Under the pieces are notes generated by a model. The model saw only the letters and a program-made list of their open reading frames with translations, was not told the origin of the DNA and did no database searches. Below, piece by piece: positions 1 to 29,673 of a stretch of 64,000 nucleotides of DNA. The stretch is from an uncultured Mycoplasmatota bacterium (GTDB taxonomy: Bacteria; Bacillota_I; Bacilli_A; RF39; UBA660). The stretch lies in assembly GCA_947165285.1 (NCBI GenBank), contig CAMUZS010000002.1, positions 26,302 to 90,301 of the forward strand. The letters are read 5' to 3'. Both the position numbers and the translations under genes were made by a program. Position 1 is the first letter of the stretch, and every line of letters begins with the position of its first letter.

Positions 1-172
1 AATCTATAGTACATAAAACAAGAATATATAATTGGTATTAGTATTAAAAAATGCAATAACTTAAATCTATGTACTAAAAAAGCATATGGTTTTCTAATAA
101 TCATTTTACTTTCCCCTATTCTCTTAATTATTATACCATATAACTTTTAAAATAAATTAAAAAAATATATAT

Positions 173-2117: not shown

Positions 2118-3356
2118 TTAAAATAAACTTTTTATTATATAAAATATTCCAATTCCTATTCCAACTAATAATGCAACTATTAATAAACCTATTATTACTT
2201 TTGAAAAAGTATTAGATTCTTTTTTCTTAGGTTCAACTTTTATTTTTATTTCAGATACACCTTCAACTTTTTCAATATTTTCTTGTTTTCTAACCTTATA
2301 TTTACAATGAATCATTTGATTCTTATTTAATGCATTTAAATTAATAGATGTTTGAGTCATTGCTAAATCTAATTTACTTTCAGGATATTCTTTAGAATTA
2401 ATATTTTCTAAAGATTTAATAGTTTCAATATTAGTTTTATAATTATTTTTTAATTGATTTGCAATATCTTCTTTTATATTATTATCAATTATTAAATTAA
2501 TGCTTTCCAAATACAAACCATAATTATCAGAAATTCCTCTAGATATCTTTTTAATATATGGATAATATTTATGAAATAATGTAGATAATATAGCATCTTT
2601 ATCTATATAAATATTATTTAAAATATAATAACTTTTTACGTCTAGTTCATTATTAAATGTATACACTGGTGATAACTTTTTAAATTTTGAATTAGTATTC
2701 ATTACAACACTATAATTATTAAATGTTCTATTATAATTATTTGATATTAAATCAAAAAATATCATTTTTATATAATCACTTTTTAATAACTCATATTCAT
2801 CATTATTAAGTCTAAATAAAACATTTAAGGTATTTAAAGTCATTTCAATAGCACTAACTATATCCTTTTCTTTATTTATATACATATTAGGTGAAGTTTT
2901 TGGTAAAGAAAAATAATCTTTTAACCATGAAGTTAATGTAATACCCTTTGATTTTATTAAACTTACTAATTTATTAATTAATATATCAACACTAACTTTT
3001 TGTTCATCTTTTTCTTTAGAATCAACATTTACTATACCATATACATTATTTGAATTAATTACTTTAAATATTTTTGTTGAATTAACATCAAATAAATCAG
3101 CTATTTCAGAATTAATTAATTCTAATTCATCTTTGTAACTATCTATAGATGATTTAATAAATCCTTGATATACTAAATCACTTCCAGTATTTGTATCTAC
3201 ATCTTGTGATTTATTTTCAATAGCTACTTCCACAGCATTATCAACCTTAATTGTTGAATTATTGATTATATTAAATAAAATTTTACTTTTCTTATCTTCA
3301 CCATTAATTTTATCAACTAAATAAAAATCATTAGCTATAAAAAAATCCTTATTCAT
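2118..3356 (-). CDS. Hypothetical C-terminally tail-anchored protein
   Basis: 412 aa with a single C-terminal TM segment (VIIGLLIVALLVGIGIGIFYII) and no N-terminal signal peptide. Confidence 0.5.
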   Translation of the reverse strand: MNKDFFIANDFYLVDKINGEDKKSKILFNIINNSTIKVDNAVEVAIENKSQDVDTNTGSDLVYQGFIKSSIDSYKDELELINSEIADLFDVNSTKIFKVINSNNVYGIVNVDSKEKDEQKVSVDILINKLVSLIKSKGITLTSWLKDYFSLPKTSPNMYINKEKDIVSAIEMTLNTLNVLFRLNNDEYELLKSDYIKMIFFDLISNNYNRTFNNYSVVMNTNSKFKKLSPVYTFNNELDVKSYYILNNIYIDKDAILSTLFHKYYPYIKKISRGISDNYGLYLESINLIIDNNIKEDIANQLKNNYKTNIETIKSLENINSKEYPESKLDLAMTQTSINLNALNKNQMIHCKYKVRKQENIEKVEGVSEIKIKVEPKKKESNTFSKVIIGLLIVALLVGIGIGIFYIIKSLF

Positions 3357-3410
3357 AATTTATACTCCACCTACTCTAACATAAATAATTATACCATAAT
3401 CAATTATAAA

Positions 3411-4982
3411 TTACCATAAATCTTTAATATATTCCTTATACCATAATTGAAATAAATAAAGATTAAATAATATACATCCTTGTTCATAGTTTAGTTTTGA
3501 TTTTTTTAAATTATCAACTAATTTGTTAACTTTATTCACATTAAAAAGACCTTGTTCTTTTATAGCATTATCATTTAAATAATTCCTTATATCTTTATAA
3601 AAAAATGTATATATCCACTCTCTTAATGGAATTCCAAATCCCTTTTTTTGACTATTTAAATATTTACTTGGAACATAATCATATAATATTTGTTTTAATA
3701 TATGTTTTTTATCATTATTATAATATTTAAACTTATGCTTAATTTTAAAAGAAGATTCAATAAATTTATAATCACTAAAAGGTATTGCTATATTTAGATT
3801 AAAATACTTTAATGGATAATATCCCTTTAACATTAATCTATTAGAAAAAAATGATTTTATATCATTTAACATATAATTAATTTGATTATTAAAAGAAACA
3901 AATATTGTCTTTTTACATTTATATTTACTATTAACAGCATATTTTTCTATATTATGAATTTTATATTTTAAAATATTTCTAAGAGAAATAATATGTCTTA
4001 TTATAGATCCTTTAAATGTATAATAATCATATATTCTAGATCCACAAAATAATTGATCAGCACCATCTCCAACTAAAATTATATTTTTATTATCAACATT
4101 TTGACCTAAATAAATAATTGGTATAAGAGATGGATCTGCAAAAGGTTCACCATATATTTTAGGAATTAAATTAATTATTTCTTTAACCTTCTTTTCATCT
4201 AGATACAGTTCTTTATGATTTGTTTTTAAATATTTAGCTATTTTTTTTGACTCCTCAGCTTCATTTCTTTCTTTTTCATAAAAACCAACTGTATAAGTAT
4301 TAACTACCTTCTTTTCCTTTTTTAATAATGATGTAATTAAATTAGAATCTATTCCAGCACTTAAATAAACATTTACTATCTTATTATTTTTAGTTCTTAA
4401 TTTTATAGACTCTAATAAATCACTTTCTATTAATCTTTTAGCTTCTTCAATAGTTTTAATCTTATTTTTATTTTTTTTATACATTTTAACTAAATCATAA
4501 TACCTTTTTATTATTACTTTTTTATCATAATAAACATAATTACCACTACTAACTTTATATACATTTTTAAAAATAGTATATGGCTCATTAATATATGAAT
4601 TTTTTAAATAATTAGCTATCATCTTCTTATCAAAAACTAAATCATTTTTATATTTTTTTATAATTAATTTAAAATTATCCGTAACAACAAATTCATTATT
4701 AATCATAGCATAACATAATAACTTAGATCCTAATTTATCTCTTACAGCTTTAATAGTATTATTTTCTATAATTATTATTGCATATTCACCATTTAATTTT
4801 AAAAACAAATCATCATTATACTTTTTATATAATTTTAATACTTTTTTTTCAACACTTATACTTTCACTATTTAAATCATTTAGATTATATATATTTCCTA
4901 TAACATAACAATAATATTTATCATTAAATAAATTATCATTAATAAATATTTTATTATTTACTTTTGTTACTATAATATCCAT
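3411..4982 (-). CDS. Asparagine synthetase (AsnB)-family amidotransferase paralogue lacking the N-terminal Cys nucleophile
   Basis: AsnB synthetase-domain PP-loop YLSAGIDSNLITSLL plus an AsnB-like C-terminal region. The N-terminus is MDIIVTK..., with no Met-Cys start. The gene abuts a GT4 gene. Confidence 0.7.
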   Translation of the reverse strand: MDIIVTKVNNKIFINDNLFNDKYYCYVIGNIYNLNDLNSESISVEKKVLKLYKKYNDDLFLKLNGEYAIIIIENNTIKAVRDKLGSKLLCYAMINNEFVVTDNFKLIIKKYKNDLVFDKKMIANYLKNSYINEPYTIFKNVYKVSSGNYVYYDKKVIIKRYYDLVKMYKKNKNKIKTIEEAKRLIESDLLESIKLRTKNNKIVNVYLSAGIDSNLITSLLKKEKKVVNTYTVGFYEKERNEAEESKKIAKYLKTNHKELYLDEKKVKEIINLIPKIYGEPFADPSLIPIIYLGQNVDNKNIILVGDGADQLFCGSRIYDYYTFKGSIIRHIISLRNILKYKIHNIEKYAVNSKYKCKKTIFVSFNNQINYMLNDIKSFFSNRLMLKGYYPLKYFNLNIAIPFSDYKFIESSFKIKHKFKYYNNDKKHILKQILYDYVPSKYLNSQKKGFGIPLREWIYTFFYKDIRNYLNDNAIKEQGLFNVNKVNKLVDNLKKSKLNYEQGCILFNLYLFQLWYKEYIKDLW

Positions 4983-4984
4983 TT

Positions 4985-7144
4985 TTATACTTCCTTCTTA
5001 AAAATAAAATCTATCCATTCCTCACATATAGTTTTAGAATCTAATATTTTTTGAATCTTACATCCATTTTTACTTAGTTTTTCACTTAATTTTTTATCAT
5101 TTAACACTTTATCAATATTACTTGCTAAATCATCTTCATTACTAAATATTACATTATAATTATCTTTTAATAAATCATTATTAAAACTATTTATAGTAAT
5201 TGATGGAATACCAATTGAAATTGCTTCAAATAAGGCATTTGGCATACCTTCATATTCACTAGTTAAAACAAATAAACTACTTTTATAAATATCATTTTTT
5301 ATATTATTAGACTTTCCCATTAAGAATACTTTATTTTCCAAATTATTATTAATAATATATTTTTGTAATTTATTTTTTAAAGATCCATCACCATATATTT
5401 TCAAAATATAATCTTTATTTTTTATATTACTAAATGATTTAATTAATAATAAATGATTTTTTTGAGGTTCTAATCTACCAACACTAACAATTTCTTTTTT
5501 TCTATTGCCATTAAATCTATTACATATAAAATTATTATCAAGGGGATTATATATTACTATAGATCTTTGTCTTATTTTCTTATCAAAATAATTCTTAGCT
5601 TCATTACTTTGAAATATAAATCCCGTTACCTTATTAAACAGTAATTTTATTAATATCTTATCTCTTAATCTATTAAATTCATATTTTGGATTATTTCTTA
5701 TTGAAACAAAAATTTTCTTTTTCATAAATAAATTAGCAATAATAACTCTATAAGATACCTCTGGTAAAAAAGAAATAATAACATCTGGATTAATATTTTT
5801 TATTAATTTTTTTAATTTAAAAATTCTTTTTACATTTTTTAAAATACAATTTTTCTTAGAGTCATCTAATAAATACTCATTAATATTACTATCCAATAAA
5901 AAGCTATTACTTGTTTTTAATGTATTAATAATACTTACATTATTTCTTTTTATCATTTCATTAGATAAAGTAGTAATTACTCTTTGAGCACCACCATAAT
6001 TTTTTGAACCACTAACAAATAATATTTTATTTTTTAAAATATTCAAATAATAATTTTGAATAAATAAAACACTATCTTTTATATCAAAACCTTTTTCTTT
6101 TATAATATTTGATTGATTTTTTCTTTCACTAATTGGTTTTAATACTTCTTTTATCCATTTATTAACATCTAATTTAACTACTTTTACTAGTTTTTTATTT
6201 AAGATACCATCTTTTACATTATCAGATACTATTACTTTTAAAGATGCTGCTTGAGCTTCAATTAAAGTTAAAGGAAGTCCTTCATAAATTGATGGAATTA
6301 ATAAAATATCAATAGCTTGCATTAACTCATTAATATCATTTCTATCCTTAAGTAAAATAACATAATCATTTAGTTTATGTTCGTCAATATATTTTAGTAC
6401 TTTTGATTCTAATGATCCACTTCCAACAATTATTAATTTAAAGTTACTATCAAATCTTATTAATTCATTTAATAAATATAAAGAAAACATAGGATTTTTT
6501 TGATGTTCTAATCTTCCTATAAAACCCAATAATATTGCATTATCATTTATTCCTAAATCTTTCCTTGTTCTTTTTCTTAAAATGTTATTAAATGCATACT
6601 TATCAACATCTATTGAATTATTTAATACAACACATTTATTTGATTTAGTAACCTTCTTTTTAAATAAATACTCACATGATTTTTGTGAACATCCCATAAA
6701 ATAATCACTAACATATCTTATTTTATGTTGATATATAGCCTTTAATATAGATTTTAACTTCATACCATTAGATGTATTATGTGAATGAGTGATAGTTTTT
6801 ATATTATATTTATGAGCTATTTTAATTATTAATGAGGCAATACTTCTTACATGAATATGAATTATTTTATATTCATTATGATTTTTAAAAAAATTATTCC
6901 ACTCTTTTTTAAATGAAAAATGATTTGTAAATTTATAATAATTCATATAATATATTTTTCCACCAAGACTCTTTATTTCATCAGCATAATATATTTCATC
7001 TTTTCTATCTACAATAAAATCAAATTGTATTTTAGATCTATCAATATTTCTATATAAATTCATAATTAATGATTGAGACCCACCACAATTTAAACTACCA
7101 ATATATTGTAAAATTCTTACTGGATTATTTTTCATAAAATTCAC
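4985..7144 (-). CDS. Fused tandem glycosyltransferase (two GT4-family modules)
   Basis: Two repeats of the GT4 architecture: N-terminal GG..(S/A)Q motifs (SLNCGGSQSLIMNL; NYGGAQRVITTL) and C-terminal E-G-hPhsLhEA motifs (EGLPLTLIEAQAA; EGMPNALFEAISIG). Confidence 0.8.
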   Translation of the reverse strand: MNFMKNNPVRILQYIGSLNCGGSQSLIMNLYRNIDRSKIQFDFIVDRKDEIYYADEIKSLGGKIYYMNYYKFTNHFSFKKEWNNFFKNHNEYKIIHIHVRSIASLIIKIAHKYNIKTITHSHNTSNGMKLKSILKAIYQHKIRYVSDYFMGCSQKSCEYLFKKKVTKSNKCVVLNNSIDVDKYAFNNILRKRTRKDLGINDNAILLGFIGRLEHQKNPMFSLYLLNELIRFDSNFKLIIVGSGSLESKVLKYIDEHKLNDYVILLKDRNDINELMQAIDILLIPSIYEGLPLTLIEAQAASLKVIVSDNVKDGILNKKLVKVVKLDVNKWIKEVLKPISERKNQSNIIKEKGFDIKDSVLFIQNYYLNILKNKILFVSGSKNYGGAQRVITTLSNEMIKRNNVSIINTLKTSNSFLLDSNINEYLLDDSKKNCILKNVKRIFKLKKLIKNINPDVIISFLPEVSYRVIIANLFMKKKIFVSIRNNPKYEFNRLRDKILIKLLFNKVTGFIFQSNEAKNYFDKKIRQRSIVIYNPLDNNFICNRFNGNRKKEIVSVGRLEPQKNHLLLIKSFSNIKNKDYILKIYGDGSLKNKLQKYIINNNLENKVFLMGKSNNIKNDIYKSSLFVLTSEYEGMPNALFEAISIGIPSITINSFNNDLLKDNYNVIFSNEDDLASNIDKVLNDKKLSEKLSKNGCKIQKILDSKTICEEWIDFIFKKEV

Positions 7145-7220
7145 CTTTAAATTATTAATAATTATAATAACATTTTTATAATAATAATTAAAGATAAAAA
7201 CAATGCCCTATGACATTGTT

Positions 7221-8654: not shown

Positions 8655-8900
8655 TCCTAAAACAAAAAGAGACTGTACTAAAGAAAGTGCTTTCACACGG
8701 TACCATCTCTTATTTAACTCAAATATTGATAACGGAAAAATTTTTCCGGAAGTAGTTTACTACCCCACTCAATGGTAGGAATTATTTAAGTATATAATCT
8801 AGTTTCCACTATCCTAGAATCACTTTTTATATTTAAATAAATAATTATGTCCATCTCAATGTATTAAATAAATGATACAATTTTATGTTTATTTTGTCAA
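8655..8900 (-). promoter_or_regulatory. T-box riboswitch leader (proline specifier CCU) upstream of proS
   Basis: On the minus strand: an aattCCTAcc specifier loop, an AGTAAA-like box, and the conserved T-box agagatGGTACCGtg. Its 3' half can pair with downstream gtacagtctct followed by ttttgtttt, forming a terminator, with an alternative antiterminator. Confidence 0.7.
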
Positions 8901-8904
8901 TAAT

Positions 8905-8938
8905 TATGCTATAATGAAATTAATAATGGAGGCAGTAA
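8905..8938 (+). promoter_or_regulatory. Extended -10 promoter (TGcTATAAT) and GGAGG RBS driving the tandem small-paralogue operon
   Basis: tgctataat at 8907-8915 and ggagg at 8928-8932, 6 nt before the ATG at 8939. The -35 element is poor. Confidence 0.5.
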
Positions 8939-9307
8939 ATGAATATTCTTGATATAAATAAAAATATTTTAAAAAAACAAGAAGAAACTCAAACTACTTT
9001 AGAGAATAATGTTGATAAATATATTGACTATTTATTTAAAAAAAATGCAATTACTTATGGTGAACATTTCTATTTAAAGGAAATATTAATCACATATATA
9101 AATTTAAAAAATGAAAAGAAAAATATAATAGAAAACAACATAAATAATGATAATAAATTAAAAGTATTAAATAACTTAATATTTGATTGTGAACAAATAC
9201 TAGATGATTATGAAATAATAAAAAACGTGAAAGAATCTATGCATTCAAATAAAACTAAAGTATTAGCTAAATATAAACCTATTATTGCTTATAACATTAT
9301 AAAGTGA
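8939..9307 (+). CDS. Small hypothetical protein, paralogue A (122 aa)
   Basis: Shares the motif YIDYLFKKNAITYGEHFYLKEILITYINL with the downstream gene. Good RBS and promoter. Confidence 0.6.
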   Translation: MNILDINKNILKKQEETQTTLENNVDKYIDYLFKKNAITYGEHFYLKEILITYINLKNEKKNIIENNINNDNKLKVLNNLIFDCEQILDDYEIIKNVKESMHSNKTKVLAKYKPIIAYNIIK

Positions 9308-9321
9308 TATAATAATTTCCA

Positions 9322-9627
9322 TTGGGGGAAATCCTTATGGAAAAGTTAGAAAAAGTTATCAATGAACAAAGAATATCATATATTAATTCATTATTTAATA
9401 CAGGTGAAATAACTTATGGAGAATGTGAATATTTAAAATTAATACTAAAAAGTTATAATAATCTTATTAGAATGAAAAATGATCTTATATATGAAGATGA
9501 AATAACTAATATGTATAAAATTTATGAAATTGATAACTATTTAAAAATTAGCAGTCAAACATTAAATAAATATAATGTATTAAGAATAGATTATGAATAT
9601 GTTAAAGCATTAAATAAAGCCTTATAA
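9322..9627 (+). CDS. Small hypothetical protein, paralogue B (101 aa)
   Basis: YINSLFNTGEITYGECEYLKLILKSYNNL aligns with paralogue A. The two genes are in tandem and appear to be co-transcribed. Confidence 0.6.
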   Translation: MGEILMEKLEKVINEQRISYINSLFNTGEITYGECEYLKLILKSYNNLIRMKNDLIYEDEITNMYKIYEIDNYLKISSQTLNKYNVLRIDYEYVKALNKAL

Positions 9628-9646
9628 TAATTATAAGGTTTTTTAT

Positions 9647-10573
9647 TTAATCTAATACAAGTCCTTCTTCTAATATTAAATCTTTAAATACTTCTTTAAA
9701 TCTATCTTTTTCTTTTATTTTAACATCATCATAAACTGTTTTAGTATTTACAATAGCTTCATACACATGCTTAATTTTAACTTCTGAAGAATTATCATAT
9801 AAAGCTTGAGTAAACGAATTTGATAAAATAGTTAATGCAATATCTGGATAACGTGAAGATATTTCATATACTCTTTTATATTCATCAGTCATTTCAACAA
9901 TAAATCTCATTATTTTTTCATTAATAAATGGTGTATATCCCATTTTAATATTCATTTCTTTTTCAAATTTAGGATATGTACCCATCATAATTTTAACAGT
10001 TGTATCTTGCGAAGGTTCCTCTACATCTACTCTTTGAAATCTTCTTAAAAATGCCCTATCTCTTAAAATATATTGTTCATACTCTTCAGATGTAGTAGCA
10101 CCAATCATTTTAATCTCACCACGATCAAGTCCAGCTTTAAACATATTTGCAAAATCCATATTAGTAGTACCATCACTTTTAGCTAATAAATGAACTTCAT
10201 CAATAAAAACAATTGTTTTTTCACGACGCGCTAATTCTTTAACAAGTAAATCTACTCTATTCTCACTTTGATTATCTACATTTAAATTACCAAACAATGA
10301 TGTAACATTTAATTTATATAATGAGTATCCAAATAAAGCATTAGGTACCATATTATTCTTAATTCTATAAGCCAAACCTTCAACTATTGCAGTTTTACCA
10401 ATACCAGCCTTACCAACTAAAAGACCACTTTTTTCTGGTGTTAAAAGAATAAGAATTAATTGTTTAATTTCTTCATCTCTTGCAATAGCAGGATCTGTAA
10501 CATAATCCCTTGCTATTAAATCCTCACCATATCTCTCTAAAATACTATAATTATTATCCATATATATCACCAT
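9647..10573 (-). CDS. Orphan ClpA/ClpB/ClpC-type D1-only AAA+ ATPase (no N-domain, no D2)
   Basis: Clp D1 signature: [34 protein letters not shown] (Walker A), [10 protein letters not shown] (Walker B), and the sensor/arginine region [32 protein letters not shown]. The protein is only 308 aa. Confidence 0.7.
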
Positions 10574-10631: not shown

Positions 10632-11552
10632 ATGTTTAAGTACACTCTAGATAACAAAAGATATCATACACTTAATTATTACTATAAAAAGAAGTATGGA
10701 AAAAAAGTATTTAAAGTATCTTTAAATGCTTCCTTTTCATGTCCAAACAAAATAAATGGTAAAGGGTGTATTTTTTGTTCAAAACTAGGTAGTGGAGATT
10801 TTGCTGGAAATAAAGATAAAGATTTAAAAACACAATTTGAAGAAGTAAAAAATATAATGTTAAAAAAATGGAATGATGCATACTTTATAGGATATTTTCA
10901 AGCTAATACAAATACATACGCACCAGTTGAAGTATTAAAAGAAAAATATGAAAGTATATTAAGATTAGATAACGTAATTGGATTATCTATTGCTACAAGA
11001 AGTGATTGTATTAATGAAGAATGTTTAAATTATTTAGTAGAATTAAATAAAAAAACAGATCTTACAATAGAACTTGGACTTCAATCTATGCATGAAAGCA
11101 CTCTAAAATATATTAATCGAGGACACGATTTAAGTAATTTTGATAATTGTGTAAAAAAATTAAAAGAAAACAATATAAAAGTAGTAGTTCATATTATTAA
11201 TGGACTACCAAATGAAACAAAAGATATGATGTTAAAAACAGTTAAACATTTAAACAAATTACATATAGATGGAATTAAAATACATATGCTACATGTAATA
11301 AAAAATACAGAATTAGCTGATATTTATTTAAAAAATCCATTCCATATATTAACTAAAGATGAATATATTGATATAGTTATTTCTCAATTAGAATTATTAG
11401 ATCCTAAAATAGTTATACATAGAATTACTGGAGATCCAGTTAAAGAAGATTTAATAGAACCAAAATGGTTATTAAAAAAGTTCTGTGTTTTAAACGATAT
11501 AGACAAAGAAATGGTAAGAAGAAATTCTTACCAAGGAAAATTACTAGATTAA
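10632..11552 (+). CDS. Radical SAM protein, TIGR01212 (YhcC-like) family
   Basis: An N-terminal SFSCPN...GKGCIFCS cluster like E. coli YhcC (GGCTFC). A TIM-barrel radical SAM core of about 300 aa. Confidence 0.75.
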   Translation: MFKYTLDNKRYHTLNYYYKKKYGKKVFKVSLNASFSCPNKINGKGCIFCSKLGSGDFAGNKDKDLKTQFEEVKNIMLKKWNDAYFIGYFQANTNTYAPVEVLKEKYESILRLDNVIGLSIATRSDCINEECLNYLVELNKKTDLTIELGLQSMHESTLKYINRGHDLSNFDNCVKKLKENNIKVVVHIINGLPNETKDMMLKTVKHLNKLHIDGIKIHMLHVIKNTELADIYLKNPFHILTKDEYIDIVISQLELLDPKIVIHRITGDPVKEDLIEPKWLLKKFCVLNDIDKEMVRRNSYQGKLLD

Positions 11553-12218
11553 TTATTTAGTTCTTAATTTAACAACAGATATGTTATTATCACCATCTTT
11601 TATTAAAGTTACTTCTGCTTCATCATCATATCCTAAATCTTTAACGTATTCAATTTTAAGAAGTACAACATATGATTCTCTCTTATTTTTATTCTTATCT
11701 TTTTTATCTTCATTTTCAATTTCAAAAGTAGATTTTTCTACTTTTTTTACTTCAACATTACTAACTTCAGGTAATTCTTGTTTTCTATCATCATAAGAAT
11801 TATCATGTACTAATTTATAAATAGTATCTAATACTTTAGATCTATGCATATCCCTTTTATCAGAATAAAAATATTGTGTACTAGTTACCTCATATTTATT
11901 AATTTTATAATTAATTGAATATAAATCTATAACAAATAATTTAGCAACTTGTTTAGCTATTTCTTCTTCTTCTGTCATATCTTTTAATTTAGCAAATTCT
12001 TGTTTATAATAATCAGTTACATTATCATTTATTTCATAACCATATTTTTCAATTGAATCATACACATTAGTAACAACAACTTCTTCTTGTTTTTTGATAC
12101 CTTGTACTTTTCCATATATTATAAGAACAATACCTGCGATTACAAATAATAGTATAATTAAAAATATACCTTTCATCCAATCTTTTTTCTTTTGTTTATT
12201 CTTCTTTTTTTCTTCCAT
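11553..12218 (-). CDS. Hypothetical membrane-anchored protein
   Basis: Lys-rich N-terminus, then a TM helix (IFLIILLFVIAGIVLIIY). The extracytoplasmic remainder has no recognisable motif. Confidence 0.5.
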   Translation of the reverse strand: MEEKKKNKQKKKDWMKGIFLIILLFVIAGIVLIIYGKVQGIKKQEEVVVTNVYDSIEKYGYEINDNVTDYYKQEFAKLKDMTEEEEIAKQVAKLFVIDLYSINYKINKYEVTSTQYFYSDKRDMHRSKVLDTIYKLVHDNSYDDRKQELPEVSNVEVKKVEKSTFEIENEDKKDKNKNKRESYVVLLKIEYVKDLGYDDEAEVTLIKDGDNNISVVKLRTK

Positions 12219-12269
12219 AATATAGGCACCTACTTTATACTTTTATAATTATATCATAAATATAAATTT

Positions 12270-12302
12270 TTACAAAACAAAAAAAGATAGATAAATCTAT
12301 CT
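12270..12302 (-). terminator. Rho-independent terminator downstream of the TasA-like gene
   Basis: Hairpin agatagat..atctatct (12285-12302), followed on the minus strand by a U-run (plus-strand caaaacaaaaaa). Confidence 0.5.
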
Positions 12303-12313
12303 TATTTTTATAA

Positions 12314-13021
12314 TTAAGCTCCTGTATTTGCAACACTTGTTTGTAATTTAGCTGTAAATGATTTTCCTTGATTTTCATTTTGCTTAATACTAGTTTCTTT
12401 AAATTCAAGTACTAAAATATAATTATCAGTTGAATTAGCATTAATTGTTGCATGAGTTAATTCACCAGCAATAGTTGGAACAGCAGTTTCAGTACCAACA
12501 ATATTAGCAGGATCTACAGAATTTTTATATAATCTGTATACAAAATCATTAGAACCAGATGTAGCAGCAGCTAATTGTTCTGGAGTATAATTTCCTGAAG
12601 CATCTTTTTGAACAGTTATAAATTCATTTGTAAGATCAGTCCAACTAATTGTATAAGTTACTGGAATTGTTGAATTATTAGTAACTGAAATAGCTTTACC
12701 TACAGAATATACTGGAGTAGCATCTTTAGTGTCATCAGCATTACTTTCATTTACACAAGTAGTATCAGATAATCTATAACCACTATCACAAGTATAACTT
12801 GTAATTGTTCTACTAATCCATCCAGGGATAATTCCTGTAGCAGTAATTTGAGGTCCGTCACTATATGCAACAGATAAATTTGCAGTAGTTACAGATGTAG
12901 TTTTAGCTTGTTCATTTCCTTCTACAGTAGCTGTAAAGTAAGCGAAAGTAGTACCAACTACAGCAGTTAATAATGTAGCAATTGCTAATACTGTTAAAAA
13001 TACAACATTCTTCTTTTCCAT
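12314..13021 (-). CDS. Secreted TasA/camelysin-like protein with SipW-cognate-class signal peptide
   Basis: The N-terminus LTVLAIATLLTAVVGTTFAYFTA matches the SipW-cognate signal motif (hydrophobic core then G-T-x-A-Y-F-T). A mature domain of about 200 aa, Thr/Ser-rich and beta-rich, as in the TasA/CalY family. Confidence 0.55.
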   Translation of the reverse strand: MEKKNVVFLTVLAIATLLTAVVGTTFAYFTATVEGNEQAKTTSVTTANLSVAYSDGPQITATGIIPGWISRTITSYTCDSGYRLSDTTCVNESNADDTKDATPVYSVGKAISVTNNSTIPVTYTISWTDLTNEFITVQKDASGNYTPEQLAAATSGSNDFVYRLYKNSVDPANIVGTETAVPTIAGELTHATINANSTDNYILVLEFKETSIKQNENQGKSFTAKLQTSVANTGA

Positions 13022-13171
13022 AATTTTCTCCTCTCTCTATCTTATAAATTAATCATAGCAAAATTATCTATAAACTGCAAGAAATATTTATTTTTTTTTA
13101 TCTTTTTTACAGTTATTATTTATATTATTACTTAAAGTAAAAAAAATATACTATAAAAAAAAAGAATGATA

Positions 13172-14437
13172 TTATTCATTCTTTTCTTCTTTTTTTAAAC
13201 CCTTAATTCTTTTTATTATTTTATTCTTACTTATACCTAACCAAATAACTAATATAATACATATTAATAGTAATACACCTGCTCCGATTAACATATATAA
13301 ATAAAAACTATCATTACTTAGTTCATTGAATAATTCTTCATCAAATACTTGGAATGTTTTATTATTTACATCATATAAATAATATGTTGAATTTCCAGTA
13401 TTTAAATCCATACCATAAATAATATAGTATTTATTTAAATCTTTATATTTAAAAGCAACTATTTCATTACCATCAATATTAATTGTAGTTTTAGTAAATC
13501 CTTTGTATGGAATACTATCAATATCTTGTGGAAAAATATTTAAATTTGATTGTAGTGAAATATATTTAGTATATTTTCCATCATTATATTTAAAGAAATA
13601 TGTATTACCAGATTCATCTTTTAAAGCAATAAGTGTTATATTATTTAATTCATTTTTAAAAGCAGGTACTTCCACTCCATCTATTGTAATTTTTTCTTCA
13701 ACATATCCTTCAGGAATCTCTAGATTTTTACTATTTTTTACAATTGTATAATTTATTCCATTAACACTTACATTTATTGGATTATTATCCTTTACATTAA
13801 CTATAACAACATATGTTTGTTTAGCTCCACTTTCAGCAGTAACAATAATTTCAAATTTATTGCTTCCTTCAACTACTTCTTTTTCTCCATCTCCTTCAAC
13901 TGAAGATTTAGAATCTTTTTTTGTTGTATTAATCTTAACTTTATCAACAGTTGATGGAACTTCTACACTATATTCAAAAATGTCATCACTAAATTCTGGT
14001 GTAAGTTCATATCCTTCTACTTCAATTTTTTTCAAAGTATTAATTGTTGAAGCTGGTGCTGGTTCTCTAACATTAACAGACTTAGAACCTGAAAGATTAA
14101 TTGTACTATATGATGTATCAGTAATATCCCCTGATAAGGTAAATGCTATAGTTCCTAAAGATGATGCTTTACAAGTTGTTGAAAAAGTCTTTGTTCCATT
14201 CTCTCCATTTTCATTCTCGCCAGACCATTCATTACTACATCCATATGTATTACCAGATGATATAATTTTTATATGCCAAGATCCAGCATTTCTAATAGTA
14301 ACTGATGCAGTTACACTTTTACCATTTTCAATTGATGCTGATGAAACATTAAACGAATATGAGGGTGCTGCACTAACAATTAAACTAAAGCATCCCATAC
14401 ATATCACACTAAATAATAAATATTTTAATTTTTTCAT
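13172..14437 (-). CDS. Surface protein with signal peptide, cadherin-like beta-sandwich-type domain and C-terminal TM anchor
   Basis: Signal peptide MKKLKYLLFSVICMGCFSLIVSAA. The segment LKKIEVEGYELTPEFSDDIFEYSVEVP...KFEIIVTAESGAKQTYVVIVNV resembles the bacterial cadherin-like domain pattern. C-terminal TM helix LIGAGVLLLICIILVIWL. Confidence 0.45.
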   Translation of the reverse strand: MKKLKYLLFSVICMGCFSLIVSAAPSYSFNVSSASIENGKSVTASVTIRNAGSWHIKIISSGNTYGCSNEWSGENENGENGTKTFSTTCKASSLGTIAFTLSGDITDTSYSTINLSGSKSVNVREPAPASTINTLKKIEVEGYELTPEFSDDIFEYSVEVPSTVDKVKINTTKKDSKSSVEGDGEKEVVEGSNKFEIIVTAESGAKQTYVVIVNVKDNNPINVSVNGINYTIVKNSKNLEIPEGYVEEKITIDGVEVPAFKNELNNITLIALKDESGNTYFFKYNDGKYTKYISLQSNLNIFPQDIDSIPYKGFTKTTINIDGNEIVAFKYKDLNKYYIIYGMDLNTGNSTYYLYDVNNKTFQVFDEELFNELSNDSFYLYMLIGAGVLLLICIILVIWLGISKNKIIKRIKGLKKEEKNE

Positions 14438-14453
14438 AAATCATAACTCCTTT

Positions 14454-16175
14454 TTATTTTTGACTAATATTATCCTTATTTAATAAAAATCTTCGCAATT
14501 TTAATAAATTAGCAGAGTTCACATCATCACCATTCATTATTTTTGCAGATTCCATAAATGCTCCAGACAAATTATCCTTACCAATTAAATATCTTCTCAT
14601 TTTCAAAAGATCAGCAGAATTTATTTGACCATCTCCAGTTAAATCACCATAAACTACAACAGTATAAGATGTACCATTAGCAAATGTAATAGTTTGTCCT
14701 GTCTTAATTAAACCATCACCATTTATTTGAATAGATGAATCTTTAGATTTTATTTCATCTATACTAGCACCTATTTCAAAACCTCTAATAAATCCTTCTT
14801 TTATAGAACCACCTATATTACTTACAGCTGAAGATATTTCTGAAGATGAAGAATTGTTTTCACTACTTCCATTATAAGTATATGTTGCACATATTGTACA
14901 TAGACCACCACTTGCATAAACTAGTCCAGCTTTAACAGGATTTTCTGCAGACGATGATGCACCTATATTATAAAAATTAAATAATCCTGAATAAGTAGTT
15001 CCCTTATATTCAAATTGTTGTCCTGTTGTATTAAACTCACCTATTTCTTGAACAGATAAAGATGCTAGATAAACAGGATTAACATTTGCATTTTTTCCTG
15101 CTTCTAAAAATATTGAAGAATAAGATTGATTATCAATAAAATCCATTCCACTTATATAACTTTTTCTATTCAATACCCCTTGAATAACACTTTCAGGTAT
15201 ATCAATATATGACAAATTTTCAAACATAAATACATAAGATTCATTTAAAAAATTTCTTGGATCTAAATAATAAGCAGTTGTTGCTTGATTAGGTTTATAC
15301 CATCCCTTTTCACCAGTTCCAATTGCATTTCCTTCACTACATTCAACTAAAGCACAATCAGTACTTTGAATTGCACCAGTTTCTTTAAATACAGCTGAAG
15401 CTTCTTCGATAGTAAGACCTGTTTTCATCGGAGTAAATGTCCAATTATCATGTTCTTGATGTAACTGTCTTAGATATGGTTTATAACTATCTGGAAAATC
15501 CTTAATCATATTTTCAAATGCATCATCTGTTTTATCAGTAGTTCCTAAGTTTGCTTTCTTTCCTCTTGGATGAGCATATTCACCTGCCATATTTTCATAC
15601 ACAGGAATTGAAAAACTAAAAGGTAAATTAAATGATCCATTTTTATAATAAGAAGTAGATGAAGATACAGCCTCAGTAGATGGTGCAGTAATATTAGATT
15701 GATATAAATGAGAATAAATAGAATAATGTCCATTTGGATTAACATTAAATTTTTTTAAATAAGAAGTAAATTGACCTTTTGCAATATATCCATTAGCTAT
15801 CCATTTAGCTCCACCAACGATTGCCTTTTTAGGAGTATTCCATGGTCTATCATATGGATTATCTAAAGATTGAGTTGTTATATATTTAGAACAAATATAT
15901 CCCTCTTTTGAATTATAACTTACCTTTAACCAACCATCATCACAACCTTCACCAGAAACTTTTTTATCATCAATAACAGTTACTTTAGTATTAGTATTTA
16001 AAGTATCTAAAATATCACTATTTTTAGTACTAGGATTTTGTCTAAATCTAACTCCATCAGTAGAAACTCTTGCTTCATATGATGCAGCCTTAACATTAAT
16101 TGGTACAACAAATAAAGAACAGAAAGTTAGAGAAATAATCATAATAATAGTAAATGCTTTTTTTATCTTAACCAT
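14454..16175 (-). CDS. Secreted SH3b-domain protein with central putative GH73-like glycosidase region and C-terminal type-I dockerin
   Basis: Signal peptide, then an SH3b-like segment (YEARVSTDGVRFRQNPS...GWLKVSYNSKEGYICSKYI). The C-terminus has two dockerin Ca-binding repeats (DLTGDGQINSADLLKMRRYLIG; NGDDVNSANLLKLRRFLLNK). The central region weakly resembles N-acetylglucosaminidase (LASLSVQEIG...GLFNFYNIGA). Confidence 0.55.
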   Translation of the reverse strand: MVKIKKAFTIIMIISLTFCSLFVVPINVKAASYEARVSTDGVRFRQNPSTKNSDILDTLNTNTKVTVIDDKKVSGEGCDDGWLKVSYNSKEGYICSKYITTQSLDNPYDRPWNTPKKAIVGGAKWIANGYIAKGQFTSYLKKFNVNPNGHYSIYSHLYQSNITAPSTEAVSSSTSYYKNGSFNLPFSFSIPVYENMAGEYAHPRGKKANLGTTDKTDDAFENMIKDFPDSYKPYLRQLHQEHDNWTFTPMKTGLTIEEASAVFKETGAIQSTDCALVECSEGNAIGTGEKGWYKPNQATTAYYLDPRNFLNESYVFMFENLSYIDIPESVIQGVLNRKSYISGMDFIDNQSYSSIFLEAGKNANVNPVYLASLSVQEIGEFNTTGQQFEYKGTTYSGLFNFYNIGASSSAENPVKAGLVYASGGLCTICATYTYNGSSENNSSSSEISSAVSNIGGSIKEGFIRGFEIGASIDEIKSKDSSIQINGDGLIKTGQTITFANGTSYTVVVYGDLTGDGQINSADLLKMRRYLIGKDNLSGAFMESAKIMNGDDVNSANLLKLRRFLLNKDNISQK

Positions 16176-24751: not shown

Positions 24752-26353
24752 TTATTTAAAAGATTTTATATTATGAAAATACCATAGTTGAAAAATATAA
24801 TAATTCCATAATACAATTGCTCTTGAATAAACAGGATATTTTTCATAATAATTAATTAGTTTTATTAATTCATCATATTTAAATATTTTTTGTTCATCTA
24901 TATAATCTTTTTTAGTTATCTTTTTTATATCATCTAATAAAAAATCTTTCATCCATTTTTTTATTGGTATACCAAAACCATTTTTTTTATAATTATCAAA
25001 ATATTTTTTATCTATATTATTATATAAAACTTTACTAAAAATATATTTATTATCTCTATTATTATCTATTAAGTCATTATTATATTCCATAAATTTATAT
25101 AATAAATCTACATCATAAAATGGAGTATAATAATTCATTTTTAGATTTTTTAATATATGAATATTTTTGTTTTTAACTTTTTCAGAACCAATATGACCAT
25201 ACAACTCTAAATTAGATACTTCATATGAATATTTTTTATTTAACTTTATTACTTTTCCTTTATAACCCACTAAGTTATCAGAATAAGCAAAACGTCTTAT
25301 TATTGGAACTTGTAAACGTTCACTATAATTTTTAGGAATTCTTATTTTATGAGTATATTTATATAATAATTCTTTATAATATTTAATATTATTAAAACTA
25401 TTATTTATCTTAAATAAATCAAATAATCCATCTACACCTTCACCTGCTAAATAAAAATCATTTTTTTCTTTAATATTTTCCATCATGTAAATACTTGGAA
25501 TAATTGATGGATCTGCAAAAGGTTCATCATAAATTAATGGAATCTTATTAATTATTTTTTTTACATCTTTTGTTTTTAATATAATACTATGATGATTAGT
25601 TCCAATATAATTTGCTATTATTTTTGCATTTTCACTTTCATCTATTTCATCTTCGAAACCTAAAGTATAAGTATTAATTTTATTTTTATAATACTTTGAT
25701 GCAAGTAAACAAAGTAATGTTGAATCTTTACCACTACTTAAAAATATTCCTACCTTAGAATTTTTACTTCCATATTTACAAATACAATTAAATAATAAAT
25801 CTTCTAAATTATTAATATTTTGTTCTTCACTTAACTTATTCTTCTTAATATCTTTAGCTTCTTCACAAATATCAAAATATTTAATTATTTTTATATCATC
25901 ATCATATTTTAATATACTACCTTTATTTAATTTATAAGTATCTAAATAAATTGTATCACTTTCATATATATATGAATATCCTAGATAATTTGCAATAGAT
26001 TGTTTATTAATTTTTAGATTTAAACTACAATTATTTTTAATTAATGATAATTTATTAGAAAAAAACAAAATACCATCTTTATGATAATAATATAATGGTA
26101 AATTACCTAATTTATCTTTAATAATAAATAATTTATTATTATCAACAATAAAAACATTATAATTACCATCAAGATAATTAACAAAATCAAGTGATTTTTC
26201 TTTATATAATTTCTCAATATACTTAATATCACTTAACTTAGTATTATTTATGATATAACCATCAATAAAAATAAAAAGATTATCTAATTTTTGTACAACA
26301 TTATCTATTTTAATTGAAATCTTATTATTTATTATACTTCCTTCAATTTTCAT
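24752..26353 (-). CDS. Second AsnB-family amidotransferase paralogue lacking the N-terminal Cys
   Basis: PP-loop IFLSSGKDSTLLCLLAS and the AsnB-like synthetase domain. The N-terminus is MKIEGSII... with no Cys2. It overlaps the upstream GT4 gene by 11 nt. Confidence 0.7.
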   Translation of the reverse strand: MKIEGSIINNKISIKIDNVVQKLDNLFIFIDGYIINNTKLSDIKYIEKLYKEKSLDFVNYLDGNYNVFIVDNNKLFIIKDKLGNLPLYYYHKDGILFFSNKLSLIKNNCSLNLKINKQSIANYLGYSYIYESDTIYLDTYKLNKGSILKYDDDIKIIKYFDICEEAKDIKKNKLSEEQNINNLEDLLFNCICKYGSKNSKVGIFLSSGKDSTLLCLLASKYYKNKINTYTLGFEDEIDESENAKIIANYIGTNHHSIILKTKDVKKIINKIPLIYDEPFADPSIIPSIYMMENIKEKNDFYLAGEGVDGLFDLFKINNSFNNIKYYKELLYKYTHKIRIPKNYSERLQVPIIRRFAYSDNLVGYKGKVIKLNKKYSYEVSNLELYGHIGSEKVKNKNIHILKNLKMNYYTPFYDVDLLYKFMEYNNDLIDNNRDNKYIFSKVLYNNIDKKYFDNYKKNGFGIPIKKWMKDFLLDDIKKITKKDYIDEQKIFKYDELIKLINYYEKYPVYSRAIVLWNYYIFQLWYFHNIKSFK

Positions 26354-27536
26354 CTAGTACCCTTTCCCATTTTTTTAATATTTTTTCTTTACTAAAATCA
26401 CTAACTCTATTTATTGATTTCTTTTTATAATTATCATATAACTTTTTATTATTTAATAATTCTAATATTGCATCTTTTAATATTATTTCTTCCTTAGTTA
26501 ATTTATAATTAGCTTTATATTTTTTATAATCACATATTGGAACTAATACTCCATATTCTTCAAAAGAAATATTATTAACAAAATTATCATTATCTTTTCT
26601 TATAGATAAAATTTCTTTAGTTCCACCATAACTATCACTAGCAATAATTGGAAGAGAACAAGCAAGAGATTCTAACAATACATTTGGCATTCCTTCATAA
26701 AAAGAATTTAAAACAAATAATTTAGAATTATACATATACTTATATATATTTTCTTTAAAATCAAAAATAAAAACTTTATCATTTAAATTATAATCATTAA
26801 CTAATTTTTTATAATACTCTTTTAATGGTCCCCTTCCAATTAATACTAATTTTATATTGTTATCATATTTTACAATTTCATTAAAAACCCTAATTAAATG
26901 CCATTGACCTTTTTGTTCATTATATCTTCCAACAGATAATATAACATCATTTTTAAAAATATTCATTTCTTCCCTAGATAGTTTTTCTTTTTTTAATTTA
27001 TTAATATTTTCAATATCTAAATAGTTTTCTATAACGACACTATTATTTTTATCCAATTTATATCTTTTAATTTGATCTTCTTCAACACTTTTTGAAACAT
27101 TAATAACTTTATCAACTCTCTTAATATATTTTTTATATAGTTTTATAAATATTTTAAAAATTATAGATTTTGGTAAAAAATGTTTATTAATTCCCATGTA
27201 ATTTCTAGTTGAAAAATATATCTTATCACCAGCTTTGCTTAAATAATTAAATACGCAATATTTCATTATAAAACTAATAGAAATATCAATATTTAATTCT
27301 TTTTTTATTCTTTTTAATTTAGAAATTCCTTTAAACATTACTCTACTTATTCTAAGTTCTTCTATTTCAATAATATTAACATCTGGTATATAGTCGGCAT
27401 TATCTAACGTTCTAACAACTAAAGTAATGTTATATTTATTTTTTAAACTATTGCATAAATTATATATTACTTTTTCAGCTCCACCTGATGTCATATTTCC
27501 AATTAAAAACAATATATTTTTCTTCATGAGAATCAC
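26343..27536 (-). CDS. Glycosyltransferase family 4
   Basis: IGNMTSGGAEKVIYNL N-terminal motif and EGMPNVLLESLACSLPIIAS C-terminal motif. Confidence 0.8.
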   Translation of the reverse strand: MILMKKNILFLIGNMTSGGAEKVIYNLCNSLKNKYNITLVVRTLDNADYIPDVNIIEIEELRISRVMFKGISKLKRIKKELNIDISISFIMKYCVFNYLSKAGDKIYFSTRNYMGINKHFLPKSIIFKIFIKLYKKYIKRVDKVINVSKSVEEDQIKRYKLDKNNSVVIENYLDIENINKLKKEKLSREEMNIFKNDVILSVGRYNEQKGQWHLIRVFNEIVKYDNNIKLVLIGRGPLKEYYKKLVNDYNLNDKVFIFDFKENIYKYMYNSKLFVLNSFYEGMPNVLLESLACSLPIIASDSYGGTKEILSIRKDNDNFVNNISFEEYGVLVPICDYKKYKANYKLTKEEIILKDAILELLNNKKLYDNYKKKSINRVSDFSKEKILKKWERVLDEN

Positions 27537-27550
27537 CTTATCTAATTATA

Positions 27551-28516
27551 CTATTTCTTTTCAATTACTTTATATAATGTTGAACAATTACAACTCTTTG
27601 CATTACAAATAAATTTCTTTGTAATCTTACAAATATTATCATTTAAAATATTACCTAATTTTGTATTTATATTTTCATTACATCTATAAACATCTCCAAT
27701 ATTACTAATTGCTATAGAATTTATTCCAGCATCACAAATAAAACCAGAAGGATTAAAATTATGGGTCTTATTTATAGACATTGAAAATATATTTGTTTTA
27801 GAAAAATAATGTGCTTTACCATCTTTAGTTACTACCATAATTCTATTACTAGGATTTTTATTTAACTCATTTTTTACTTTATCACTTATACTTTTTTTAT
27901 AATTTCTTATAGGTACAAATTCAACTTTAAAGTTTTTAGAATACTTGTTTTTAAAATCCAAATATAAATCATAATCAATATCTTCAATTAATGGTATATT
28001 AATAGTTGTTTTAATATTTTGTTTATTATTTAATATTTTAACTTTATTTATAAACTCTTTCTCATTAGTATAAGCTTTATAATAACTGCAACTAAAATTT
28101 ATTTCTCTATTTTTTAATTTTTTAAACATTTTAACAAATTGTTTTAATATCTTTTTATCCGCAGACATATTAGTTGTAATATTAAATTTAATCAATCCAT
28201 CAAATTTACAATTAATTAATTTATTCATAATATTAAATATATCTTTTAAAATTGTTACTTCACCACCAATTAAGTAAAAATGTAATATATCATATTTTGA
28301 ATTTAAATTATTTTCTATATATAAAATTATCTTATCTAATATATTATTTCTTAAATCTAATGATTCATTTTTTGAATCTTTTATATGCTGTTCTTTATTA
28401 CCTTGAATACAAAAATCACAATTATAATTACATACTCTAGTAACATTCCATCTTATAACATACGTACCCTTTTTTATAATTTTATTTTCTATTCTAACTA
28501 TATCACTATTATTCAT
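27551..28516 (-). CDS. Radical SAM enzyme with C-terminal Cys-rich (SPASM/twitch-like) region, embedded between GT4 genes
   Basis: CNYNCDFCIQG is a CxxxCxxC motif about 30 aa from the N-terminus. The C-terminal third carries seven Cys (FICDAG...YRCNEN...NICKI...FICNAKSCNCS). Its start codon shares a nucleotide with the stop of the upstream GT4 gene. Confidence 0.65.
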   Translation of the reverse strand: MNNSDIVRIENKIIKKGTYVIRWNVTRVCNYNCDFCIQGNKEQHIKDSKNESLDLRNNILDKIILYIENNLNSKYDILHFYLIGGEVTILKDIFNIMNKLINCKFDGLIKFNITTNMSADKKILKQFVKMFKKLKNREINFSCSYYKAYTNEKEFINKVKILNNKQNIKTTINIPLIEDIDYDLYLDFKNKYSKNFKVEFVPIRNYKKSISDKVKNELNKNPSNRIMVVTKDGKAHYFSKTNIFSMSINKTHNFNPSGFICDAGINSIAISNIGDVYRCNENINTKLGNILNDNICKITKKFICNAKSCNCSTLYKVIEKK

Positions 28517-29673
28517 TATATAACCTCATTTATTAGATTTAACCATTTCTTTATTATTACATTTTTACTATAATCTTTTTTTCTAATTGATGATTGTTTA
28601 ATATAATAATTTCTTTTATTGTTATCATTTAATATCATTAATATAGCCTTTGCTAATAATTGTTCTTTTAATGTAATATAATCTTTATTATGTTCATTAA
28701 TAAATGATGGAACTAAAATACCATATTTCTTCTCTTCAATATCATCTACAAACGTATTTATATTTTCATCATCAATTATTTCTATTGAACCACCATATGA
28801 AGACGTTGATATTATTGGTAAATCACAATTTATGGCCTCAATTAAAACATTAGGAAAACCTTCATAATCAGATGCTAAAACCATACACTTAGCATATTTA
28901 AAAAACTTAAAAGGATTTTTATAATATGACATTAAAAATACATTATTCTTTAAATTATATTTATCTATTAAATCATTTAAGTAATCTTTTTGATTTCCCC
29001 TACCAAATATTAATAGTTTTGCATCACTTTTTTCTTTAACTACAATACTCATTGATTTAATAATATGTTCATGTCCTTTATGTTCAACAAGTCTTGCCAT
29101 ATCAATTATCATATTATTGCTGATATATTTTTTTTCGTTTTCTTCTATTTTTTCTTTAATACATTTATTTATTAATGCATCATCACAAAAGTTTTCAATG
29201 ACAACTGTTTTCTTCTTTTTAGAATGATATTTTTTTATTTGATCATCATAAACACTTTTTGAACAACATATAACTTTATCACAAAAAAGTAATGATATCT
29301 TATGATATATATATAAAATAAATTTTTCTTTTTTAGCAGATAAATGATTTCGAACAGATATAAAAACCTTATCCTTACACTTAGACAATATATTATAATA
29401 ATTATATAATGTAGTATAACTTATTGTAACATCTATATTATTTTCTTTTTTTATCTTTTTTAACTTTTTTATAGCCTTTAATCTTTTATGTTTTGAATTA
29501 AATTCCAATATTTCAATAGTTTTTACATTACAATCATAATCGAATGAACACTTATCAGCACATACTAAAATAACATTATGATATTTCATAAGTTCATTTG
29601 CTAAATTAATAATAGATCTTTCAGCACCACCATTATTTAGATTTCCAATTAATAACATAATGTTCTTTTTCAT
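28516..29673 (-). CDS. Glycosyltransferase family 4
   Basis: LIGNLNNGGAERSIINLANEL and EGFPNVLIEAINCDLPIISTS motifs. Confidence 0.8.
   Translation of the reverse strand: MKKNIMLLIGNLNNGGAERSIINLANELMKYHNVILVCADKCSFDYDCNVKTIEILEFNSKHKRLKAIKKLKKIKKENNIDVTISYTTLYNYYNILSKCKDKVFISVRNHLSAKKEKFILYIYHKISLLFCDKVICCSKSVYDDQIKKYHSKKKKTVVIENFCDDALINKCIKEKIEENEKKYISNNMIIDMARLVEHKGHEHIIKSMSIVVKEKSDAKLLIFGRGNQKDYLNDLIDKYNLKNNVFLMSYYKNPFKFFKYAKCMVLASDYEGFPNVLIEAINCDLPIISTSSYGGSIEIIDDENINTFVDDIEEKKYGILVPSFINEHNKDYITLKEQLLAKAILMILNDNNKRNYYIKQSSIRKKDYSKNVIIKKWLNLINEVI

Follow-up and report, generated by a model that had tools for sequence, protein, structure and literature searches.

The described systems that come closest to the gene pair analysed here are RicA/RicF (YmcA/YlbF, Com_YlbF) of Bacillus and other Firmicutes, the WXG100/EsxA-EsxB and LXG-associated Lap pairs of type VII secretion in Firmicutes, the class II bacteriocin immunity proteins and the N-domain repeats and adaptors of the Clp ATPases (MecA, SspB, ClpS). 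The ymcA and ylbF genes are not arranged in tandem. The immunity proteins of class II bacteriocins, such as EntA_Immun, and other small helical-bundle immunity proteins have about 90-120 aa, are often duplicated, evolve fast and are constitutively expressed, and small helical bundles represent a common immunity fold. The pair studied here (ORF1 and ORF2) is located in a window of 64,000 nucleotides (the whole stretch of DNA that was analysed) from an uncultured Mycoplasmatota bacterium. It resembles the WXG100 and Lap pairs in that it consists of tandem helical paralogues of about 100 aa, in which the turn that links helix 1 to helix 2 bears a conserved motif with a glycine. With the Clp repeats and adaptors it shares its helical character, and it lies beside a Clp-type ATPase that has no N-domain. 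Our data show that what had been two "hypothetical proteins" are the products of real, selected genes, which found an undescribed family.

The features of the locus are compiled in Table 1. The reading frames of ORF1 and ORF2 are intact in four to five diverged loci and the indels that separate the orthologues preserve the frame. When substitution rates were calculated according to Nei-Gojobori, dN/dS ratios of 0.19-0.52 (ORF1) and 0.12-0.45 (ORF2) were obtained and none of the pairwise values exceeded 1. The dS of the pair (0.5-1.05) was close to that of the flanking AAA+ and ProRS genes (0.54-0.82) and its dN was about 3-10 times the dN of the AAA+ gene. The GC content of the pair is 17.9% vs. 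23.6% for the whole window and 26-31% for the flanking housekeeping genes. Such a composition (18% GC, rich in K, N, I and Y), combined with the lack of any database family, would fit chance open frames in AT-rich intergenic DNA. However, this explanation is at odds with the open frames and frame-preserving indels of four to five diverged loci, with dN/dS ratios of 0.12-0.52 at a dS of 0.5-1.0 and with the conservation of Shine-Dalgarno sites, promoter and terminator. Moreover, the opposite strand of the pair carries no ORF of at least 40 aa, and we consider chance frames as effectively refuted. The sequence-only reading of this DNA had already regarded spurious ORFs as unlikely, and the orthologues, which we found on at least four other metagenomic contigs with dN/dS below 1, bear this out. 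Judged by these substitution patterns, ORF1 and ORF2 are real genes under purifying selection.

Table 1 Features of the gene pair and of its immediate neighbours (nucleotide positions refer to the window)
Feature	Position	Strand	Description
T-box leader	8678-8868	-	RF00230; at 45.5 bits (E=4.4e-9) it stays under the Rfam gathering score of 93; found in a short-stretch search and missed in a 4-kb search
ProRS promoter	8900-8872	-	TTGACA-17-TATCAT, near-consensus, drives the T-box leader
Extended -10 of the ORF1-ORF2 unit	8907-8915	+	TGcTATAAT (TGCTATAAT), read directly
Shine-Dalgarno site of ORF1	8928-8932	+	GGAGG with a spacing of 6 nt to the ATG; same sequence in L001 and L003
ORF1	8939-9307	+	122 aa, basic paralogue, pI 8.5
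ORF1 features	residues ~21-34, 40-65, 71-90		core helices; a basic linker follows, and K-x-K-P-I-x-A-x-N-x-x-K is conserved at the C-terminus
Shine-Dalgarno-like site of ORF2	9324-9329	+	GGGGGA, conserved in all loci
ORF2	9337-9627	+	96 aa from ATG, acidic paralogue, pI 5.5
ORF2 helices	residues 2-21, 27-54, 59-78, 86-95		AF2 prediction
Hairpin	9610-9650	.	5' A-tract and 3' U-tract, -11.7 kcal/mol, z=-2.95
AAA+ gene	9647-10573	-	single ClpA/ClpB D1-type module, 308 aa, convergent to the pair
Radical-SAM gene	10632-11552	+	MnmL/YtqA tRNA-modification enzyme, TIGR01212 E=1e-105, above cut-off; housekeeping

An extended -10 promoter and a GGAGG ribosome-binding site had been described in front of the pair. 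Both elements were found, and their conservation extends to L001 and L003, which have TGATATAAT as the -10 element. There is no recognisable -35 element upstream of it. Since a generic scan for sigma-70-like promoters gives as many sites in shuffled sequence (12 matches in the AT-rich stretch vs. 12.7 in the shuffles, i.e., no enrichment), the expression "strongly promoted" is at most a reasonable reading of the consensus. At the other end of the unit, the hairpin listed in Table 1 overlaps the stop codon of ORF2 and lies directly against that of the AAA+ gene, which converges on the pair. At the same position, L057, L001 and L003 carry hairpins of other sequence with z-values of -4.3 to -5.0. 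This element is a probable bidirectional intrinsic terminator common to ORF2 and the AAA+ gene, which was missed by a consensus terminator scan because its stem contains too few G-C pairs. An own promoter, Shine-Dalgarno sites for both genes and a terminator hairpin indicate that the pair forms a self-contained bicistronic unit, which is not co-transcribed with its neighbours.

The promoter of ORF1 overlaps the divergent ProRS promoter and the DNA of about 240 bp that separates ORF1 from the ProRS gene is far more conserved than ORF1 itself. We considered this conserved DNA as a regulatory element of the pair and rejected the idea; it consists mostly of the T-box leader, together with the promoter of the divergent ProRS gene, and it is this leader that accounts for the almost identical intergenic sequences of the window, L001 and L003. 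The codon expected to act as specifier in the leader is CCU (proline), and the ProRS ATG 8645 is preceded by a terminator hairpin that has a U-run. The mechanically assigned start of the ProRS ORF (GTG 8696) falls inside the leader, and the real start is probably ATG 8645, which is located behind an AGGAGG.

For ORF2, the sequence-only reading had counted 101 aa from TTG 9322. Its start is more likely ATG 9337, since the GGGGGA motif is located 7 nt upstream of this codon, the orthologues start at the aligned position and P0001, the public gene call, comprises 96 aa. The two peptide blocks quoted previously match the sequence exactly, and the assignment of ORF1 and ORF2 as paralogues proved correct: BLASTP yielded 39% identity over 69 aa (E=1e-8), and when the profile of the ORF1 orthologues was compared with that of the ORF2 orthologues (n=4 each), we obtained a probability of 96.3% (E=1.5e-9) over 82 columns. 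The length of this profile alignment indicates that the homology spans all three core helices and extends beyond the quoted block. As to the proposed common core I-T-Y-G-E-x-x-Y-L-K-x-I-L, the block is present in both ORFs of the window, but its I-T-Y-G-E part is not family-wide, and the remaining ORF1 orthologues carry I-D-E-G-T-[HY]-F-Y-L-K-E-I in its place. The core that is invariant across all sequences is Y-I..L....I..G...Y-L-K.I...Y..L...K. Sequence identity amounts to 42-80% within the ORF1-type group, to 63-81% within the ORF2-type group and to 20-36% between the groups. This separation into two orthologue groups indicates that the duplication is older than the divergence of these lineages.

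In the window, the ITYGEH of ORF1 (9050-9067) resembles the ITYGEC of ORF2 (9409-9426), and all other ORF1 orthologues carry IDEGT[HY] at this site. The nucleotide identity of the paralogues is 0.70-0.77 in the ITYGE block vs. 0.50-0.63 elsewhere, at an extreme codon bias. In view of this bias, a short recent gene-conversion tract between ORF1 and ORF2 is no more than possible in the window; it would account for the common ITYGE.

Orthologous pairs were found on the metagenomic contigs L001, L003 and L057. L002, which lies on the same contig as L058, carries ORF2 and the 3' end of ORF1, and a further protein (P0007) is encoded on an NCBI contig of 878 bp. ORF1 and ORF2 were always found together. 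Two word-indexed searches of 5.8 billion clusters retrieved only the window's own proteins and two ORF2 orthologues. An exhaustive HMMER profile search of 1.84 billion representatives (50% identity) yielded four genuine proteins and a fifth match, which was rejected as a spurious repeat protein. A third search, carried out with a 7-sequence profile, added one fragment of 51 aa. The total is about 5-6 loci among roughly 15 billion proteins. The JGI metagenome scan re-found L002 and nothing else, and a pattern-based scan of the GTDB representative genomes, which would miss divergent members, did not detect the pair. There were no relatives in IMG/VR and no match at E<=1 among the INPHARED phages (ORF2 query, tblastn) or the PLSDB plasmids (ORF1 query, tblastn), and a phage or plasmid origin was rejected on the basis of these searches. 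The occurrence of the pair is patchy: it is present in L057, whose AAA+ protein shares 86% identity with that of the window, and absent from this position in L004 (87%) and L005 (89%). Judged by this distribution, the pair is a fast-evolving accessory element limited to one narrow lineage of uncultured ruminant-gut Bacilli. With a dS equal to that of its neighbours, the family appears to have been passed on vertically, always at the same locus.

Both proteins are predicted to be all-helical, as had been proposed, and are modelled as antiparallel helical bundles. AF2 gave a pLDDT of 92.4 and a pTM of 0.80 for the ORF2 monomer and a pLDDT of 81.6 for ORF1, values to be taken cautiously since the underlying alignments are shallow (4 and 7 sequences); idealised helical sequences often give a high pLDDT. 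In the ORF1 model, the three core helices are arranged as in ORF2, and the N-terminal extension and the C-terminal segment are of low confidence. Neither protein contains a hydrophobic segment (maximum Kyte-Doolittle(19) value of 0.5) and by this measure both are soluble and cytoplasmic. The isoelectric points are complementary in every orthologue (8.5-9.2 for ORF1, 5.2-5.5 for ORF2). ORF1 owes its basic character to a tail with a net charge of +6 to +9 over the last 30 residues, which ends with the conserved motif listed in Table 1. Each paralogue has one invariant Cys, at different positions, and the Cys column of ORF2 is occupied by His in three of the four ORF1 sequences.

The sequence-only reading had not recognised the family, and we found no curated match in Pfam, NCBIfam, PHROGs, PADLOC or the PDB sequences. 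In Pfam-A, the best E-values were 0.026 or worse, each for one member only and all from unrelated families. In NCBIfam, ORF2 had no match and ORF1 had two, which scored about 250-425 bits under the cut-off; PHROGs returned E-values of 0.05 or worse. A PADLOC match to PDC-S35 (E=0.01, 13.5 bits, one of six members) was discarded as compositional. The best hit of a PDB profile search was a de novo designed bundle (E=4). Foldseek returned generic helical matches against PDB (best E=1.5) and BFVD (best E=0.56), and as fold searches retrieved nothing but such matches, the fold is uninformative on function. In none of the libraries searched did the pair show a catalytic or DNA-binding signature. By the measure of these searches, the pair is a previously undescribed small-protein family.

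The pair had been reported to run convergently into an orphan Clp-D1 ATPase, and this arrangement was found as described. The AAA+ protein matches positions 165-449 of the 734 positions of the ClpA model (E=3.8e-52, far under the full-length cut-off), starts directly at the D1 module and has neither an N-domain nor a D2. At 52-89% identity, counterparts of this 308-aa AAA+ protein are present in uncultured gut "Bacilli" MAGs that represent 53 GTDB species; the closest relatives are RUG12834 and RGIG4820 from ruminants. None of these 53 species carries a pair-like ORF within flanks of up to 5 kb on each side (hmmsearch, E<=10), and downstream of the AAA+ gene the gene content varies between lineages. 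The pair adjoins the AAA+ gene wherever the contig reaches far enough (window, L001, L002, L003, L057). The window, L001 and L004 are the only loci in which MnmL adjoins the AAA+ gene. In L004, the order p221-MnmL-AAA+ is kept and a 408-aa protein without an assigned family occupies the place of the pair and the ProRS gene. The co-occurrence of homologues with AAA+ or radical-SAM neighbours, which had been suggested as a check, is thus not conserved, and the 53 species that keep the AAA+ gene without the pair indicate that the adjacency is inherited local synteny rather than a functional module. Since all loci are close relatives with a common ancestral gene order, it counts as one observation. 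This removes a tempting false lead, namely a functional module of the pair with its AAA+ and radical-SAM neighbours.

The AAA+ proteins of distant relatives carry a putative N-terminal extension of 40-170 aa (longest-ORF reading), which is extremely acidic and of low complexity. The pair does not correspond to these extensions, which gave no HMM match. In several distant loci (e.g., L032, L049, L051, L053), the AAA+ gene is located near genes for a membrane protein of 124-128 aa, a helical protein of 250-264 aa and a full-length ClpC. The helical protein occupies a similar convergent position near AAA+/ClpC and was rejected as a counterpart of the pair (hhalign probability of 0.2%). The orphan AAA+ protein may be of greater interest than the pair.

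Over the first 53 kb or so of the window, the annotated ORFs (150 aa or longer) are chromosomal housekeeping and glycan-synthesis genes, including ProRS, ArgRS, PFOR, RNase R, SmpB, Tex, glycosyltransferases, asparagine-synthase-like proteins and LytR-CpsA-Psr. Toxin, secretion-system, sigma-factor, integrase and phage genes are absent from those located at 560-53164. Four large ORFs had no Pfam match, two of them at E<=0.001 (560-1678 and 2118-3356, minus strand; 372 and 412 aa) and two at E<=1e-5 (49297-50565 and 51173-53164, minus strand; 422 and 663 aa). The stretch 11553-16175 (minus strand) encodes a run of probable envelope or secreted proteins. The 221-aa member has no family match (nothing below E=0.02), the 235-aa member matches weakly to a SipW-dependent (BsaA/TasA-like) signal region, the 421-aa member contains a cadherin-like beta-sandwich domain and the 573-aa member combines SH3_3 and dockerin type I domains; for a small-genome gut Bacillus, a dockerin is unusual. 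Glycan-synthesis genes of very low GC (17-20%, measured for 5000-7200) are located at 2118-7144, 24752-29673 and 35604-37424 (all minus strand). Among them are three asparagine-synthase-like paralogues and a gene for a 719-aa protein in which two GT4 glycosyltransferase modules are fused, and the whole likely represents a variable surface-polysaccharide region.

Our best guess, which we put forward tentatively and with low confidence, is that the pair forms a hetero-oligomeric helical-bundle binder with a basic and an acidic partner. Two old tandem duplicates of about 100 aa each would be expressed from a single two-gene operon (promoter, Shine-Dalgarno site and ORF1, Shine-Dalgarno site and ORF2, terminator). 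The basic ORF1 protein, with its additional basic linker and C-terminal helix, and the acidic ORF2 protein would assemble into a hetero-oligomeric bundle, which might bind another macromolecule stoichiometrically and act in the manner of an adaptor or neutraliser rather than of an enzyme. The strict co-occurrence of the two proteins, their complementary charge, the lack of a catalytic or DNA-binding signature and a fast evolution that is typical of interaction surfaces point in this direction. Against it, complementary pI values are weak evidence, and the single ancestral gene order at all known loci leaves no independent evidence from genomic context.

The sequence-only reading had likened the pair to immunity, anti-sigma or regulator pairs. 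The annotated context of about 53 kb offers nothing in favour; neither a toxin or bacteriocin nor a sigma factor, a secretion system or a mobile element was found in it. In the immunity version, the two genes would be an orphan immunity- or antitoxin-like pair of a conflict system that neutralises an incoming toxin (bacteriocin, polymorphic toxin, phage product), and duplication and rapid divergence would track the variation of this toxin. Tandem divergent paralogues with elevated dN, the low GC content, the patchy presence among close relatives (L057 vs. L004 and L005) and a constitutive-looking promoter would all be in line with such a role. However, the same 53 kb hold no T7SS, LXG, phage or transposase gene either, no immunity family of PADLOC, PHROG or Pfam was matched (the weak PDC-S35 signal concerns one member and the other five have none), and phage, plasmid and viral collections contain no relatives. 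Apparently vertical inheritance at one fixed locus, with a dS like that of the neighbours and no pairwise dN/dS above 1, also speaks against it, and we regard an immunity function as unlikely. For small transcription regulators or an anti-sigma/anti-anti-sigma partner-switch pair, one could invoke the small, paired helical proteins, the basic tail of ORF1 and the overlap of the promoter with the divergent T-box/ProRS promoter. This version is very unlikely, since HTH, sigma, anti-sigma and STAS signatures (Pfam, NCBIfam) are lacking, no sigma factor gene is located nearby and the predicted long antiparallel helices include no DNA-binding motif.

The neighbouring gene suggests a further explanation, in which the two proteins would serve this lineage as adaptors or modulators of the orphan Clp-D1-like AAA+ ATPase beside them. 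This ATPase has no N-domain of its own to which substrates or adaptors could dock. The pair lies next to this gene in the window, L001, L002, L003 and L057, the AAA+ protein begins at the D1 module, and the different, acidic N-terminal extension of the distant relatives indicates that N-terminal accessories vary in this clade. But the pair and the AAA+ gene converge, with a terminator between them, and are thus not co-transcribed; their adjacency is a single observation among close relatives with ancestral synteny; in 53 species the AAA+ gene is present and the pair absent; and there is no homology to the Clp_N repeats (hhalign below 1%), to the AAA+ N-extensions or to the Clp adaptor families of Pfam. 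An adaptor function is thus quite improbable. A long shot, to which we give little credence, is that the pair is a clade-specific hetero-oligomeric accessory that provides the orphan single-ring Clp-D1-like AAA+ protein with its missing docking function for substrates or adaptors, a role which the fused acidic N-terminal extension would fill in distant relatives, or else an orphan immunity module against an unrecognised toxin.

If the AAA+-accessory or the immunity reading were true, it would lead to a new small-protein family with a testable partner. Lineage-restricted small helical proteins are very common in MAGs and rarely tractable, and without a partner, a phenotype or a wider distribution the family alone raises no question. 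The pair offers a clean, conserved unit delimited by promoter and terminator, which is amenable to direct testing.

When compared with the known systems, the pair, which we tentatively read as a hetero-oligomeric binder, differs from each of them. In contrast to RicA/RicF, the pair has no Com_YlbF (PF06133) match in Pfam at E-values up to 10 and no Fe-S-type cysteine cluster, each paralogue having just one invariant Cys. The WXG100/Esx proteins are two-helix hairpins, whereas three to four helices are predicted here; all eight sequences of the pair are free of Trp, so that the W-x-G motif is absent, no WXG100 or Lap family of Pfam or NCBIfam was matched, and there is neither an EssC/T7SS gene nor an LXG toxin nearby (ORFs of at least 150 aa, 560-53164). 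The class II bacteriocin immunity proteins are similar in size and in the predicted helical bundle, yet none of their families matches the pair, and no bacteriocin, transporter or toxin gene is located in its vicinity. The G-E-C-E-Y-L-K-L-I-L of the pair superficially resembles the Clp_N motif G-T-E-H-L-L-L. Homology to the Clp_N repeat (PF02861) was rejected, since hhalign gave probabilities of 0.1-0.3% against repeat 1, repeat 2, both repeats and the full N-domain alignment, for which 14 ClpC proteins of related loci and a B. subtilis ClpC N-domain sequence were used. Clp_N and Clp adaptor families of Pfam are not matched either, and the genes of the pair and of the ATPase are convergent and not co-transcribed. 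No toxin-antitoxin domain of Pfam or PADLOC was detected, and whereas the components of type II toxin-antitoxin systems are non-homologous, this locus combines two paralogues.
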